IMG/VR virus record: IMGVR_UViG_3300038314_000845
Coordinates: 1-42,048 of that record
DNA length: 42,048 bases
Reading direction: 5' to 3' (one strand)
DNA from: a virus
Taxonomy: Duplodnaviria; Caudoviricetes
Shown: one piece after another, positions 1,834-35,726 of the stretch
Position numbering within the stretch: the first letter of the stretch is position 1
Layout of the letters: every line of letters begins with the position of its first letter
Translations under genes and position numbers: made by a program
The notes under the pieces: generated by a model
The model's input: only the letters and a program-made list of their open reading frames with translations
Database searches by the model: none
What the model was told of the DNA's origin: nothing

Positions 1834-4037
1834 TATCGGCTGCCTCCTAATCTCATGCCTCGGTCGTCAGCAACGGACGCGACAAGGTTGTAGAATAAAT
1901 CGCGGTTTCTGGTCGCCCATTGTGTTAAACCTTGCTCACTTGGCGGAAGATTAAAGTTAAATTCGGCTTTCATTTCTCGCTGCTCATTGTTATTCGTCGT
2001 ATTCATTTCGTTGCGCAACTGGCTGTTCGGCATAACTGAGCCATTAGTATTCATGCGTACAATTTCGGGTCCGCGTTCACCAACTAGATATTCGTTGCCT
2101 GCTAGGACTTGTCCGCCTGCTGCGCGAGGACTGTACTGCTGTCCCTGTATAGCTGACACTTGAGCTGCCCCCATTGCCGCAGCAGATACGCTAAAAGCAA
2201 CTGCAACAGGCCACGGAACGCCGGGCGTCGCGAGTGCGTTTGCTGTCGCCTGAAACGTGCTTATAAGAGCCTGAGCGGTCGCAAGGTCTTTGTAGCGCTC
2301 AAACGACTCTTTGCCTCCTTGCTTAGCTATTTCAGCAAAGTTACCAAAAGCCTGACCGAGATAATCAAGCGACTTCATCATAGACTGATTCTGCTGCTCT
2401 TGCTCCTGCTCAGCTATCCTTCTACGCTCCGCCGATGCCTGCTCTTGTATAGCTGTTTTCTGGTCTTCGAATTGCTGCGTTAACTCAAGCTGTGCTTCAT
2501 TCGCTTCTTGAATGTTGGCGTTCTCAGTCTGACGATACTGGTTGATTATGTTCGTGCGCTCCATGTATCGCTGTTCGAGCAAAGCAAGTTCGGTTTGCGT
2601 TTCGGCTCGCACTCGCTCTGCTGCCGCTTCGCCCTGACTCATATCGCCAGTAATCTGCGGCTGAACGGTTAATCCTTCTTTGGCTATGTCTCCTTGTAGC
2701 TTTTCAAAATCAGAGCGCACTGACTCGTCATCTATGCCGTTGTCACCGCCTTGCTGCCCACCCTGAAAGCCTCCAAACAACCCTGACGGTTCGCCAAGTG
2801 GTATCTCATTCAGGGCAATCTTGGCTTCGTTTGCTTTTTCTTTTAAGTTATTCAGGTATGCGTCTGCGCTGTCAGTTGGCAGGGGTTCATTCGCCAGCCT
2901 GACCAGCTCCAGTCTTGTGTTAGCTACATCCTGACTAGCTTCGTCCAGTGATTGCCTTAAACTGGGAACCTGTGAGGTGTCAAATTCTAGTTTCGGTATA
3001 TCATCAAGGAATGGGAGCGCATTATATCTTTCTATTATAGCGTTTATGTTAGCTGTCACGCTTTTTTCTATTTCTATGAAGGCTTGCTGAACAGACACAG
3101 CGAAAGACAGCGCAACCTGCTCTGCTGTTCGGAAAGCGAGCTCAGCAGACAGAAGCCCAAGCTCGATACCTCTAAAAGCGTCCCCAACAAAAGCGCCACC
3201 TCTAATAATGCCCTCAAAAGCAGCTCTAGCTGAATCGTCAAAATCAGATAGGTTCTCAGATAAGTCTACAATTACATCACCAAGCAGGGATATTGCACCA
3301 GAAGACTGATTAGCCTTTCCTAGAAATGTTGTCAGATTATTATTCGCAACAGTCAACGACTGTCCGAACGTGCGCTCTGACTTATCGAATATGTCATCAA
3401 TCGTATCGCCGTAGTTTTCCAACGAGCGGATTAGAAGCTCTGACGTTATCTGGCCTTCTGCTGCAAACTCTCGCAGCTCACCAATCGTCTTACCAGTTTC
3501 AGCGGCAACAGCCCGTAGTATCTCAGGTGCGCCCTCGGCAACGGAGTTGAACTCGTCACCACGTAACGCGCCAGCCGCCAAGCCTTGTGACAACTGACGG
3601 ATTGCGCCAGCAGCTTCTTGGGCAGTTGCTCCGGATGCAGCGAATGACTTGTTGATGATGTCAGTGATTCGCACCAAGCGGTCTTGCGATATATTTAGTT
3701 CGGTGGTGTTTCGTGCAAGGGTTGCATATAGCCCCGCCGTTGACTCAAGCTCGGAGCGCGTATTATTGGCAACCTCTAGCAACTCGCGCTGAATGTTGGC
3801 AAGCTCTGAGGTTGATTCTGTAACTATTTTAAGCTGGTTCTGTACGCTTGTGTAAGCGTCCGCATACCTAACCACGGCGCGAACACTTAAAGCCCCGCCC
3901 AACGCCACAAAAGCATTGCGCAGAGCAGTTGTAGCGGTCGTCGTAGACTTCCCTCGACTCTCAAGGCGCTCAAGGTCATCCGTCGCCCGTCTGACTTGAC
4001 GACTGTCTGCTAATAGTTCAACTCTTGCTTGCGTCAT
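1833..4037 (-). CDS. Tail tape measure protein
   Basis: 734 aa helical; QLSQGLAAGALRGDEFNSVAE tape-measure motif; C-terminal RAAGGQV...YLVGERGPE. Confidence 0.95.
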   Translation of the reverse strand: MTQARVELLADSRQVRRATDDLERLESRGKSTTTATTALRNAFVALGGALSVRAVVRYADAYTSVQNQLKIVTESTSELANIQRELLEVANNTRSELESTAGLYATLARNTTELNISQDRLVRITDIINKSFAASGATAQEAAGAIRQLSQGLAAGALRGDEFNSVAEGAPEILRAVAAETGKTIGELREFAAEGQITSELLIRSLENYGDTIDDIFDKSERTFGQSLTVANNNLTTFLGKANQSSGAISLLGDVIVDLSENLSDFDDSARAAFEGIIRGGAFVGDAFRGIELGLLSAELAFRTAEQVALSFAVSVQQAFIEIEKSVTANINAIIERYNALPFLDDIPKLEFDTSQVPSLRQSLDEASQDVANTRLELVRLANEPLPTDSADAYLNNLKEKANEAKIALNEIPLGEPSGLFGGFQGGQQGGDNGIDDESVRSDFEKLQGDIAKEGLTVQPQITGDMSQGEAAAERVRAETQTELALLEQRYMERTNIINQYRQTENANIQEANEAQLELTQQFEDQKTAIQEQASAERRRIAEQEQEQQNQSMMKSLDYLGQAFGNFAEIAKQGGKESFERYKDLATAQALISTFQATANALATPGVPWPVAVAFSVSAAAMGAAQVSAIQGQQYSPRAAGGQVLAGNEYLVGERGPEIVRMNTNGSVMPNSQLRNEMNTTNNNEQREMKAEFNFNLPPSEQGLTQWATRNRDLFYNLVASVADDRGMRLGGSR

Positions 4038-23254: not shown

Positions 23255-23650
23255 ATTTTGCCCCATTTGCCGCGCCCGTATTTAAAGGGCTGTAGCGATT
23301 TTAATGTCTGTCTGCGGCATGGATGTAAGCTATGGGGAGAATTTTGCCCCATCTGGAATCCTTATAGAATAAGGGATTAAGTATAATAAAGAGGTATATG
23401 TAACTTAACTTAACTTATTTTCTTTTTTGCTTATCTTATTCTCACCTACTACCGCCGCAAAATTTTCATTCACACATACATGCCACCCCAAAAATCTGCC
23501 GCAAATCGACGAAAAACGCTGAAAGCCTTTACTGGCGTGGTCTACGCTTGGGGCAAGAATCTTACACGGGTGCCCCATAGATTAGTTTAAGTTATTGATA
23601 TATAAAGTAAAACCCATTCTCCCCACGTTGCCGCACATCTGCCGCAAATA
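23255..23650. repeat. Putative replication origin with TGCC(C/G)CA iterons and an IHF site
   Basis: About 12 exact or near copies in both orientations around an AT-rich core; TATCAATAACTTA (minus, 23588-23600) matches WATCAANNNNTTR. Confidence 0.6.
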
Positions 23651-23713
23651 GCCTGTATTCGATTATTTTTTAACCTATTATTGGGTTAAGTGTTGTTATT
23701 CAGTCATGATGTG

Positions 23714-23742
23714 TTGACTAAATGAGTTGATGCGCCTAACAT
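23714..23742 (+). promoter_or_regulatory. Promoter of replication operon
   Basis: TTGACT-17-TAACAT. Confidence 0.6.
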
Positions 23743-23777
23743 TGCACCTAACAGATAACAAAACCAAACAGTGAACG

Positions 23778-24032
23778 GTGGTTAAAATGCTTTTATCAAA
23801 ATCCCAAATAAAAGAAAAACAAGCGGCAGAATTGGCGCGTCTAATTGATTACGTCGGAAGCCGTAACGCGTTAGCTTCTCAATTAGGTGTTGATTATTCC
23901 GTCGTTACTATGTGGATAAAGCGCGGCCGTATCAGTGCGACACAAGCAACAGCGGTTGAGCGTCTAAGTGAAGGTCGCTTTAAGCGTCAAGACTTGCGAC
24001 CTGACGTTCCAGCGTGGCGCGAAGAAGTGTAG
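23778..24032 (+). CDS. Cro/YdaS-like HTH transcription regulator
   Basis: GSRNALASQLGV..SVVTMWIKRGRI...LRPD. Confidence 0.85.
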   Translation: MVKMLLSKSQIKEKQAAELARLIDYVGSRNALASQLGVDYSVVTMWIKRGRISATQATAVERLSEGRFKRQDLRPDVPAWREEV

Positions 24033-30853: not shown

Positions 30854-31306
30854 ATGGCACAACGTGGAATCAACAAGGTTATTGTTTTAGGTAATTTAGG
30901 GCAAGACCCCGAAGTTAATCACACACAAAACGGAACGGCGGTTGCTAATTTGTCAGTCGCAACCAGTGAAACGTGGAAGGATAAGCAAACAGGAGAGCAG
31001 AAAGAGTTTACCGAATGGCACCGTGTCGTACTGTGGGATAAGCTGGCAGAAATTGCGGGCCAATACCTCAAGAAAGGCTCAAAGGTTTATATTGAGGGAA
31101 AACTGCAAACTCGGAAATGGACTGACCAAAGCGGAAGCGACCGTTACACAACTGAGATTGTGCTTAAAGGCTTTGATGGCACTTTGCAAATGCTTGATTC
31201 GCGTGAAGGCGGGCAAGGTGGCTATCAGAATAATCAGCCTGCACCGCAACAACAGCAATCAATTCAAGGTCAGAATCAATTAAACGGTGATGAGCCTCCA
31301 TTCTAA
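30854..31306 (+). CDS. ssb: Single-stranded DNA-binding protein
   Basis: [17 protein letters not shown]...TEWHRVV...[16 protein letters not shown]; acidic PF tail. Confidence 0.97.
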
Positions 31307-31344
31307 CTGGTCGTACCACCTAAGCCTAGCCTTTGTGTTAGGCT
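31307..31344 (+). promoter_or_regulatory. Promoter with palindrome CTGGTCGTACCAC (31307-31319)
   Basis: Palindrome-19-(TGT)TAGGCT. Confidence 0.7.
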
Positions 31345-31373
31345 TAGTTTTATTGGAAGCGACGGAGAGATTT

Positions 31374-32651
31374 ATGAACCAGTTATCATGCCCGACTAGC
31401 ATTAAAGAAGTCATCGAAGAATACCGCCACAAGTCGGAGTTTTTAGCAGATGCCATAAAAACCTTTGAACAGGCAGAGCGAGACATTGATTCTGCTGTTC
31501 AGGTTATCGGAGGTTTTACAGGCGATTCATTTATAAAAAAGAATTACCTATCGGAAACACACGGACAGCGCATATTGTTAGCAAGCGCATGGAAGTCGAT
31601 ATATCACCGTCTAGGGCTTGATAATGTGTTTAGCGCAGATGATAAGCGCAAGTTTGAGCAATCCCTGACGCACCCAGCTCCGCTAACGCTTGAGAACTTA
31701 CAAGCTAGTTTCGGTAAGTATTGGGAAAACCCGCGCTACTATATCTTGAAAGGGCTGGCAGAGGCATTCTTTAAGCTCGATAAGTTCTATAAGTCCCATT
31801 CAAATTTTGGCTTTGGGGTTAAGGGATTGCCTAAGCGTGCAATCATTAGTAATTTTGCTGGCTATGGTTCATGGGGTAGCGGCCACTTAAAAGATATGTG
31901 CGAAGCTATTTTGCAAGTAACAGGCTCACCAATGCTTACGCAGGATGAGAAAGGTCTTATATACCAAAGCAAGCTACGTTCAGAGGACTTTAATTTGCCG
32001 CGCTTAGGTTTATCAATCCGAACATTCCAAAACGGCAACGCGCACGTTTACTTCGATAAAAACTCGCTACGCATTGTAAGTGAAGCTCTACATGAGTTTT
32101 ACGGGAATGTATTGCCTGACGCATACGAACAAGGGGAACGACCACAAAGCACAGAAGTGGCGAAGGATTTACAGTTTTACCGCACGCCAAAAGCGGTTGT
32201 AGAGCATGTTTTGTCGTCGGTGCATATTCCTAAGGGCGCAACTGTATTAGAGCCTAGTTGCGGCGATGGGGCAATCATTGACGAACTAAGCCTAATGGGC
32301 GCTAAATGCGTTGGCGTTGAGTTCGACAAAGCAAGAGCCGCACAAGCAAAAGCGAAAGGTCATGCCGTTCATGTGGCTAACTTTTTAGAAATGGCTCCGA
32401 CGCCAGAATTTGACTTTGTAATAATGAACCCGCCGTTTTACGGTAAGCATTATGTCAAACATATTGAGCACGCCAAGAAGTTTCTGAAAGAAGGCGGTAC
32501 GCTTGTTTCAATACTGCCAGCTAACGCTTGGTATGAGCACAAGCTGTTAAAAGGCGAATGGCATGACTTGCCGATTGGCAGCTTTAGAGAATCGGGAACT
32601 AACGTCAACACAGGCTTTTTGATAATGCGGAGGGTCGGAGGTGCTAAATAA
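31374..32651 (+). CDS. DNA amino-methyltransferase (likely N6-adenine) with DUF4942-like N-terminal domain
   Basis: Motif I LEPSCGDG, motif IV MNPPF; SD GGAGAG before ATG 31374. Confidence 0.85.
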   Translation: MNQLSCPTSIKEVIEEYRHKSEFLADAIKTFEQAERDIDSAVQVIGGFTGDSFIKKNYLSETHGQRILLASAWKSIYHRLGLDNVFSADDKRKFEQSLTHPAPLTLENLQASFGKYWENPRYYILKGLAEAFFKLDKFYKSHSNFGFGVKGLPKRAIISNFAGYGSWGSGHLKDMCEAILQVTGSPMLTQDEKGLIYQSKLRSEDFNLPRLGLSIRTFQNGNAHVYFDKNSLRIVSEALHEFYGNVLPDAYEQGERPQSTEVAKDLQFYRTPKAVVEHVLSSVHIPKGATVLEPSCGDGAIIDELSLMGAKCVGVEFDKARAAQAKAKGHAVHVANFLEMAPTPEFDFVIMNPPFYGKHYVKHIEHAKKFLKEGGTLVSILPANAWYEHKLLKGEWHDLPIGSFRESGTNVNTGFLIMRRVGGAK

Positions 32652-33766: not shown

Positions 33767-34891
33767 ATGAGTAACATTACAGACGAACAGGTTATTGAGG
33801 CTTTGGAGTCTGGCCTTTCAATCCGCAAATCTGCTGAAAAACTTGGTTGCAGCCATTCTAACTTGATAAAACGGCGGGATAGGTTGGTACGTAGAGGGCG
33901 ATGGGGAACGAATAACCAGTTAGACAAGCCAGCGCCTGAGCCTTTCCTGCTTAATCGCCGTTCAGAGCATACAGGCAAAGACGGAACGATAACAGGCTGG
34001 AATATCTACGAACCTGATAAGGTCAAGGCGTTCCAGATGCTGCAAGAAGCTGTTAAGGCAATGGCAGAGGAAGTTCCGCCCGCACCTCCTGTCACCTCTA
34101 TTCCACCTCAAGGTCAAGATAACATCACCAATCTCTATGTTATTACTGATTATCACCTAGGCATGATGGCGTGGGGAGAAGAAACTGGCGCAGACTGGGA
34201 CATGAAAATCGCTGAGGATATGCTGCTTAACTGGTTTAAGCGAGCAATCGAATCAGCGCCAGCCGCGAGCAGCGCAATACTGGCTAACATAGGTGACTTC
34301 CTGCATTGGGATGGAATGGAGGCAGTAACGCCAGCATCAAAGCACCTCCTAGATGCAGACACAAGATTTACGAAGCTAATACGTGTCTGCATTCGTGTAT
34401 GGCGACAAATAATCCCTATGCTTCTACAAAAATACGAGTCTTTACACGTCATCATGGCAGACGCCAACCATGACCCTGCTAGTGAGAGCTGGATGCGAGA
34501 AATGCTACACGCATTTTACGAGTATGAGCCGCGGGTAACCGTTGATACATCGGCAGACACTTATTACTGTTATGAGTTTGGAAAGGTCAGCCTGTTCTTC
34601 CACCACGGTCATAAGCGCAAGCCCGCTAACATTGACACGGTATTTACTGCCAAGTTCCGTGAGGAATTCGGCAGAACTTCTTTTAGTTATGCTCACATGG
34701 GGCACTTACATAGCGTCGATGTAAAAGAAACTAACCTTATGCTTGTTGAGCAACATAGAACACTAGCTGCCCCAGATGCTTACGCAAGCAGAGGAGGATG
34801 GATAAGCGGTCGAGACGCAAAAGTAATAACTTACCACAAGGATTATGGCGAGGTCGCAAGATGCACAATTAGTGCTGACATGCTCAAATAA
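33767..34891 (+). CDS. Metallophosphoesterase with N-terminal HTH
   Basis: TDYHLG, GDFLH, ANHD, HHGH, GHLH motifs. Confidence 0.88.
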   Translation: MSNITDEQVIEALESGLSIRKSAEKLGCSHSNLIKRRDRLVRRGRWGTNNQLDKPAPEPFLLNRRSEHTGKDGTITGWNIYEPDKVKAFQMLQEAVKAMAEEVPPAPPVTSIPPQGQDNITNLYVITDYHLGMMAWGEETGADWDMKIAEDMLLNWFKRAIESAPAASSAILANIGDFLHWDGMEAVTPASKHLLDADTRFTKLIRVCIRVWRQIIPMLLQKYESLHVIMADANHDPASESWMREMLHAFYEYEPRVTVDTSADTYYCYEFGKVSLFFHHGHKRKPANIDTVFTAKFREEFGRTSFSYAHMGHLHSVDVKETNLMLVEQHRTLAAPDAYASRGGWISGRDAKVITYHKDYGEVARCTISADMLK

Positions 34892-34904
34892 CCCCACTGC
34901 CGAC

Positions 34905-35444
34905 AACATGTATAAGAAAACGGACTTTCTATACATGCCCGTCCAATATGTACAAATTTATGTACATAGTCTACAAAAGGTTTTTACTTTTAGTAACGAA
35001 GCGTACACCAAGCGCCCTTTTATGCGCATTTAAATGTAACTTTAGACACTTTTATGCGCATAAAAACGTAAAATTCTATTTTTGTGTTTTCAATCAGACG
35101 AGAACCAGTTTACAAATTGACACATATACGCACCATAAGACCGTTCAGAGAGCTATATGTAAACCATTTCTGTCATAACTGTGACGATAAACACCACATA
35201 CCCAACATAACTGTCACAATGATAATGCACCTTATATGACTCATTAACCGCATAATCCGCCAAAAATGAGCTAAATAAGGGTCATTATACGCCAACCCGC
35301 ATAAACCTGCTTTATACGCCAACGGGTATAATAATCCCGTTATCGAGTGAATTATGGGATTATTAGGTGTTAAGTCCAATTTTTTTCATGCGCTAGATGT
35401 AACCGTAATCAGTAACAATCTCCAATGTAACTAATTTTAGTAAC
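34905..35444. repeat. Non-coding array of diverse paired operator-like palindromes
   Basis: See findings; includes TATGTACA-N6-TGTACATA, TTTTATGCGCATAAAA, TAATAATCCC-N17-GGGATTATTA. Confidence 0.7.
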
Positions 35445-35491
35445 TGGTCGTACCAGTTTTTTCTTGTAAGCACAATCTACTGTGCTATATT
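35444..35491 (+). promoter_or_regulatory. Promoter of HTH gene with upstream palindrome CTGGTCGTACCAG (35444-35456)
   Basis: TTGTAA-16-(TGC)TATATT; palindrome 29 bp from -10. Confidence 0.65.
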
Positions 35492-35522
35492 TACCCCATC
35501 AACAACACAGATGGAGAGAATA

Positions 35523-35726
35523 ATGTACAAATCAATACTGGACACAATCTTTAACCTGACTGAGCGCATGAAGCGTCATAAGACGATGGATATTGCACGT
35601 GCGTCAGGCGTTCATAGAAACACTGTCAGGTCGATTAAGAACGGTGTCAATAAAAACCCTAGCGTTGATACATTAAACGCCATACACAAAGCCCTAGACA
35701 GTATGGAGGGCGTTGAGCATGACTGA
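35523..35726 (+). CDS. XRE-family HTH regulator
   Basis: DIARASGVHRNTVRSIKNG..KNPSVDTLNAI; SD GGAGAG. Confidence 0.85.
   Translation: MYKSILDTIFNLTERMKRHKTMDIARASGVHRNTVRSIKNGVNKNPSVDTLNAIHKALDSMEGVEHD

Follow-up and report, generated by a model that had tools for sequence, protein, structure and literature searches.

Tiled sites resembling operators of host toxin and defence genes in a gene-free strip of a marine phage genome

The window analysed in this study, a 42,048-nucleotide stretch of DNA, is a near-complete 42-kb phage record from IMG/VR (IMGVR_UViG_3300038314_000845), with marine metagenomes as its source samples; none of the listed holders of window sequence was RNA. Its minus strand carries siphovirus head and tail genes and its plus strand a primase-helicase-exonuclease VIII-SSB block, while a scan of 53 ORFs in the window gave no match to an integrase. 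The closest named relatives are distant, the capsid reaching 56% to Alteromonas phages R9Y1-3 and the helicase 51% to Pseudoalteromonas phage TW1, and we infer that the host of the phage belongs to the Alteromonadaceae. A divergent control region at 23266-24014 is a possible origin; it has three GCCGCA-containing repeats (23451, 23495 and 23627), and a short unlisted ORF precedes the primase there. At 31287-32651 lies a gene that resembles DNA methyltransferases and whose N-terminal part is long; it is missing at the same place in a related viral contig, L240.

The feature under study is a gene-free strip of ~570 bases, bounded by the stop codon of a phosphoesterase gene (34891) and by a hairpin resembling an intrinsic terminator (35442-35466, plus strand), which closes the strip and is identical at 25 of 25 positions in L240. 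The metallophosphoesterase gene (PHROG 704; 33767-34891, plus strand) is the last gene of the replication operon. Its counterpart in L240 (1733-2869) is a distant allele set between neighbours that are otherwise ~80-86% identical. On the 3' side of the hairpin, and thus outside the strip, lie a sigma-70-like promoter with a dyad of its own (35464-35491, plus strand; dyad 35469-35486) and a Cro-like HTH gene (35511-35726, plus strand). A different allele of the HTH gene occupies this place in L240, and the promoter is exchanged together with it. The initial annotation of this region (34905-35444) had described it as lacking any credible ORF, and this holds: three ORFs of 62-76 aa overlap it, none of which is kept in L240, whose copy of the strip is without any ORF of at least 50 aa up to position 3353, so that these ORFs are not conserved. 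The strip is real and non-coding.

The dyads and repeats on which that annotation was built were all found at the positions given for them (34907-34937, 34947-34968, 34984-34996, 35017/35049, 35174/35206, 35223-35246, 35265-35286, 35285/35312, 35329-35365, and 35397/35425 with 35411/35439), the perfect 16-mer palindrome being 35050-35065, in the second box of the 35017/35049 pair. Repeat counts were compared with 300 dinucleotide shuffles. Perfect inverted repeats with arms of at least 7 and a gap of at most 30 numbered seven against a shuffle mean of 1.8, and direct repeats of at least 8 nt within 45 nt numbered four against 0.7; neither count was reached in any of the 300 shuffles. With shorter repeats there was no clear enrichment, as 62 inverted repeats with arms of at least 4 (51 in shuffles) were reached in 20 of 300, and 12 direct repeats of at least 6 nt (7.8 in shuffles) in 31 of 300. 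An excess of palindromes over shuffled sequence, on which the initial proposal depended, is therefore present for the long repeats and not clearly so for the short ones. Among 139 sliding 600-nt windows the strip was joint top (12; mean 4.7), and because four windows of coding DNA scored 11-12, palindrome density by itself is only modest evidence.

The strip was divided into units and segments, A to K, to which no strand was assigned, with a length of ~50 bp per unit. A pattern scan led to one related viral contig, L240, in which the strip lies at the same place with a mean column identity of 83%, between the distant phosphoesterase allele and the different HTH gene. A contig in run X6 provides a third allele, so that the comparison rests on three alleles (window, L240 and X6), a small sample. 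In L240 the 47-bp unit G is missing, the sequence of B-C is a different one, and the H/I junction is longer by 9 bp. The X6 contig is identical to the window over 34900-35061, has a 44-bp deletion of E and different sequence over I-J, and is bordered by flanks of the L240 type. Gain and loss of units at the syntenic locus, which the initial annotation suggested looking for in related phages, were thus seen in both: units are swapped as blocks, and the strip outlasts its neighbours. A further contig, L292, is the same phage as the window (8020 of 8020 identical) and is not independent. Viral contig scans with the HTH gene and the 518-aa helicase gave no strip relatives, and no unit motif was found in TW1, XCL1123, R9Y1, L166 or L167. 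Relatives of the phosphoesterase (80 loci) were also considered as strip relatives and were rejected, being unrelated phages without the strip.

Unit D (35014-35068) consists of paired TTTTATGCGCAT(AAAA) palindromes with a 32-bp period, and its boxes are identical at 22 of 22 positions in L240. The exact pair TTTATGCGCAT-N(18-30)-ATGCGCATAAA was found in 69 GTDB genomes, mainly of marine gammaproteobacteria, and although the gap was left free, the pair spanned 46-47 bp in 62 of the 69, as compared with 46 bp in the phage. In 45 of the 69, with boxes and 32-bp period directly upstream, the pair is followed after 38-134 bp by the start of a protein of ~437 aa with AAA_14 and DUF4143 domains. All five of these proteins that were tested matched the PADLOC model PDC-S01 (E about 1e-120), which has the status of a candidate defence system only. 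The protein has no sequence relative in the PDB; its structure model resembles the archaeal AAA+ ATPases 2fna and 2qen, with a poorly predicted middle part. The ATPase itself would bind the unit D-type site. As the spacer of unit D also resembles host spacers, its sequence suggests capture from a host rather than convergence.

Unit I (35286-35330; TATAC-N8-G(C/T)ATA twice, 27-bp period) was traced from a match on a Sulfitobacter plasmid, where it precedes hipB by 3 bp. The derived pattern occurred in 8 of 151 genomes against one for the control, and in seven of these eight a palindrome pair with the host period lies directly upstream of an HTH gene and HipA, as for a hipBA operator. Like the hipBA operators reported in PMC4150777, unit I is made of repeated short palindromes, and its N8 spacer equals that implied there for E. 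coli and is 2 bp longer than the N6 of Shewanella. It differs from them in having TATAC/TATGC boxes of the Alteromonadaceae/Sulfitobacter type, in having two sites rather than four or more, and in lying apart from gene and promoter.

Unit A (34908-34936; ATGTATA-N15-TATACAT), supported by BLAST and by matrix, corresponds to an ATG(T/C)A(T/C)A-N15 palindrome found upstream of a subfamily of SoFic genes, which encode Fic proteins with a wHTH. Its BLAST match precedes a SoFic gene of 357 aa (L272) by 57 bp, and the same site type precedes the SoFic genes L353, L357 and L358. Among SoFic loci over the cut-off (n = 16, in 81 genomes), three carry the unit A type and 12 carry another site; L272 has the unit A type in addition to these three. 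The allele of unit A in L240, ATGCACA...TGTGCAT, is altered in both arms and is the allele found upstream of L357; in this one case, therefore, the phage allele follows the host allele. The match appears to sit at the position expected for such a site, although the site reported for the related enzyme CccR differs in sequence from unit A (PMC9755527). The commoner SoFic subfamily (L341-L352) has a repeated upstream site of its own, ATGTCGA...TCGACAT, of which the window phage holds no copy.

Two further units were assigned less completely. Unit H (35222-35288; ATGAGCCGAATA-N8-TATTCGGCTCAT) is of a type found at 2 of 18 loci of DUF4172-Fic genes. It is present as a full 32-bp palindrome in L240, while in the window a 9-bp deletion where it adjoins unit I has taken away its right arm. 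The dyad of unit B (34947-34968; TGTACA-N6-TGTACA), half of which is lost in L240, occurs exactly in 84 viral loci, 20 of which precede a P4-family integrase and three a YefM gene. It fits the GTAC-N8-GTAC core described as the yefM-yoeB operator core and as specific to yefM promoters (PMC7544224), and it also lies 40 bp after unit A, which is the period of SoFic sites (7.1 bits). Unit B is thus ambiguous between a yefM-yoeB core, a site of the kind found upstream of P4-family integrases and a decayed second SoFic site. The initial annotation had pointed to operators of type II toxin-antitoxin operons; this stands for hipBA (unit I) and perhaps for the yefM-type unit B, and does not apply to the other assigned units, whose genes encode solo toxin or defence-candidate proteins with a DNA-binding domain of their own (SoFic, DUF4172-Fic, AAA-DUF4143 and SatD-HTH).

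Unit K (35397-35444; GTAAC-N8-GT(A/T)AC twice, 28-bp period) was first recognised through a BLAST match, L266, in which the site lies at the 3' end of the operon concerned. Its pattern was found in 12 of 151 Alteromonadaceae genomes, as compared with three for the reversed control. In all 12 the palindrome pair, with its 28-bp period, lies within ~200 bp upstream of a gene for a SatD-like protein of ~210 aa, which is followed by DUF3307. The first genes of these operons align as one family, and four of the 12 match Pfam SatD. The model of the SatD-like protein shows the fold of a class III nucleotidyl cyclase, followed at the C-terminus by a helical part, in which sigma-4 HTH models match in three of 12, and it would be this protein that binds the K-type site. 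At three distant plasmid SatD loci repeats with other box sequences were found, which is what co-variation of site and protein would produce. The SatD-like protein has no sequence relative in the PDB, PADLOC holds no model for SatD or DUF3307, and the literature searched yielded no publication on either in defence. A cyclase fold beside a membrane protein is reminiscent of signalling defence systems, and the SatD-like-HTH/DUF3307 operon (L293-L304 and L483-L485), which has this composition, is a candidate signalling defence or addiction system. A 3.8-kb plasmid of E. coli and Klebsiella likewise has this operon as its principal cargo. In one genome (L298, G094:C375:1718-2044), about ten tandem 28-bp copies of the K type stand upstream of the SatD operon.

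The K pair recurs widely on viral DNA as a stand-alone element (viral contigs L411-L481; L482, which is phage M5.1; G606, G607 and G609). Exact pairs were found in 71 viral contigs, which represent 48 distinct sequences and include L240; SatD and DUF3307 are absent from the 1.5 kb around the pair in every one, and none of five whole records with the pair encodes SatD. Of the 71, 51 share a single flank type in GC-rich phages and may therefore represent one lineage; two of these were classed as provirus. In the order of G002 the K pair was found in 0 of 201 genomes, which, with the different boxes of the three plasmid SatD loci, leaves the host partner of most stand-alone viral copies, the GC-rich ones included, hypothetical. 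In GC-rich proviruses the pair is intergenic and often 3' of what, by eye, appears to be a DNA methyltransferase gene, and in large phages it lies in tRNA spacers. Pseudomonas phage M5.1 has a near copy that occupies the tRNA-Leu/tRNA-Cys spacer. An unrelated 166-kb phage, G607, carries the K pair before tRNA-Leu and an exact I-type pair after tRNA-Glu, and has no cognate gene. The hipBA-type and SatD-type pairs of G607 lie at L500:4791-4835 and L492:915-960, with more perfect dyads between its tRNAs. Four phages with a K pair were scanned besides that of the window, G607 among them, and the other three carry no further unit.

For the remaining parts of the strip no cognate gene was found. Segment C (34969-35012), which includes TTACT-TTT-AGTAA and is 77% similar to the end of unit K, is replaced in L240 (16 of 44 identical), while segment E (35069-35100) is identical there at 30 of 32 positions; genome searches with either gave no cognate gene. 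Unit F (35101-35171; 61 of 71 identical in L240), an imperfect inverted pair GTTTACA...TGTAAAC, gave five weak BLAST matches among 251, and was found in 1 of 151 genomes and in 0 of 106. Unit G (35172-35221; CATAACTGT twice, 32-bp period), cleanly missing from L240, matched 21 of 151 genomes, roughly as many as the control and mainly inside ORFs, and in symmetrised form in 0 of 106. The dyad of unit J (35329-35365; TAATAATCCC-N17-GGGATTATTA) was found in 7 of 151 genomes at two mismatches, in mixed contexts with no common neighbour gene. E. coli genomes contained no match to 35066-35400. Most of the 33 BLAST matches examined in Alteromonadaceae genomes were set aside as chance matches in or near unrelated genes, and matches on Aliivibrio and Agrobacterium plasmids were uninformative.

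Matrices trained on host sites only were then used to scan the whole 42 kb. The best hits genome-wide fell inside the strip for unit D (63.6 bits; next -48.7), unit K (33.9; next -2.0), unit I (27.4 bits; next -1.0) and unit A (28.6 of 37; next 7.3). The matrix for unit H scored 33.4 of 45.7 bits in L240 and 10.1 (rank 4) in the window, and that for unit I only 3.2 bits in L240. This test is partly circular, because the host sites had been found with patterns derived from the phage; the non-circular evidence is that the host matches lie upstream of one gene family each. Such a search upstream of toxin-antitoxin and defence operons had been suggested at the outset, and its result is positive for units A, D, I and K. 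None of the cognate proteins of the assigned units is encoded in the window by tblastn or HMM search. On these sequence comparisons, the four units very probably derive from host sites. The original idea, which saw in the units the operators of self-regulating host genes rather than the sites of a single phage regulator, accordingly holds for these four and in part for two more.

A common trait of the assigned genes is that they encode a toxic or candidate-defence protein or complex with a DNA-binding domain and have a repeated site at the promoter. HipB binds its own promoter DNA, and the inhibition of HipA is attributed in part to sequestration on operator DNA (PMC4150777). The wHTH Fic enzymes SoFic and CccR are reported to be self-binding (PMC12249575): SoFic, an abortive-infection protein, binds its own promoter DNA as a dimer (bioRxiv 2026.07.09.737422), as does CccR, whose level rises sharply once its palindromes are mutated (PMC9755527). 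The reading that we favour, with moderate confidence, is that the strip would serve as a DNA sink with several targets, drawing off host toxin and defence proteins that repress their own genes. Pieces of host operators would have been taken up by the recombination proteins of the phage and kept by selection. Since self-repressed proteins are probably kept scarce, a genome with two sites for each could bind much of the pool, and tens to hundreds of replicating genomes would exceed it, so that bound host protein would be kept off its target; with hipBA, extra antitoxin made after derepression might also help. It speaks for the sink that no unit overlaps the downstream promoter and that a terminator lies between, while the 12 of 16 SoFic loci with an operator not found in the strip, the decay of unit H in the window and the weakness of unit I in L240 count against it. 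So do the five parts (C, E, F, G and J) that yielded no cognate gene and the 3' position of the K site in L266. Titration could also harm the phage in the case of solo self-repressed toxins, because repression would be lifted too and toxin synthesis could rise, unless host transcription were off. Moreover, the SoFic dimer is reported to be needed for DNA binding and AMPylation alike (bioRxiv 2026.07.09.737422), and a DNA-bound dimer need not be inactive, since the same dimer AMPylates. Titration could thus be helpful for hipBA and risky for solo toxins.

The same sites could act in cis, as a tag or docking strip on which host proteins bind the infecting genome at low copy and are parked there or protect it, with no bulk titration. 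The two-site geometry is kept, as for the assembly of an ordered complex, but the classes concerned (Fic, AAA+, HipB and a cyclase fold) are unrelated and share no obvious mechanism in cis, self-binding being their common feature, and we regard this as unlikely. Sites for host regulators on phage DNA are a known theme (LexA, Spo0A), and the strip directly precedes a promoter and a Cro-like gene, as it would if the phage read the defence proteins present by their binding and tuned its own transcription. That promoter, however, lies beyond a conserved terminator and has a dyad which changes with the HTH allele. Promoter-like sites in 34700-35700 number two against 3.3 expected by chance, the leftward one having lost its -10 element in L240, and where copies stand alone in tRNA spacers no regulatory gene follows them. 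With the promoter free of any unit and the terminator in between, such sensing is distinctly unlikely.

Neutral accumulation of host DNA is conceivable in a phage with exonuclease VIII and SSB genes, and five segments without a cognate gene and two units decayed in one allele are what relics of recombination might look like. Random capture, however, would not yield four operators of one functional class, nor would it account for K boxes conserved over their spacers (20 of 20 against 20 of 26 identical in L240) or for the recurrence of the same two site types in the unrelated phage G607. A role for the strip as part of an origin or packaging site fares no better, as no phage protein family explains the unrelated dyads and relatives lose units freely; we consider either alternative, relics or origin and packaging, very improbable. 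Finally, with a stop codon on one side and a terminator on the other, the strip is probably transcribed, and as a 3' trailer of the replication transcript it might act as a structured RNA through its hairpins. Folding z-scores of -3.6 and -3.7 and the alteration of unit A on both arms in L240 fit with this. Both strands, however, fold alike, as expected for palindromic DNA, the 27-, 28- and 32-bp periods are those of double-stranded sites in hosts, the two-arm change is that of a host allele (L357), and Rfam returned eight matches at E ≤ 5, all far under the gathering score. An RNA function therefore has very little probability.

Nucleic-acid mimics taken from host defence loci are reportedly represented by the pseudo-antitoxin RNA repeats of phage phiTE and by RNA anti-CRISPRs, which, in contrast to a DNA sink, act as RNA and each against one system. 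LexA is said to be a host regulator that binds phage DNA at GIL01; there, the sites overlap phage promoters and the regulators are global, whereas the units of the strip relate to accessory toxin and defence genes. Closer in kind, and a precedent for the sink, is aba of the Salmonella prophage BTP1: as high-copy DNA in trans it can by itself switch off BstA, which it has been proposed to suppress in this multi-copy form (PMC8585504). Like the strip, it is short and non-coding, comes from where a defence gene starts, and has repeats that matter. As described there, however, aba is one 63-bp element that overlaps the start of the defence gene of the same prophage and serves self-immunity, while the strip is tiled with several sites of unrelated gene families, none of which the phage encodes. 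No cognate gene was found in the window by tblastn or HMM, and no bstA-like gene is named beside the strip. Thus the strip, if it works at all, would work like aba but outside the BstA/aba system.

In the literature searched, which scarcely covered subscription journals, no description of operators of defence genes arrayed on phage DNA came to light. It is tentatively possible, at somewhat less than even chances, that phages gather the operators of host toxin and defence proteins that bind their own promoters, and use them as gene-free, modular counter-defence, either tiled or placed between tRNA genes. If true, this would generalise what has been the single, unexplained case of aba, and would reveal a DNA-only layer of counter-defence that is invisible to gene-based searches, as screens seek proteins and, lately, RNAs. 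The self-repression of defence genes would then be an exploitable weak point. Orphan operators on phage DNA would point to uncharacterised immune systems, such as SatD-HTH/DUF3307 and AAA_14-DUF4143, and would become a search tool for new ones, with predictions already in hand for two unstudied families, PDC-S01 and SatD/DUF3307.
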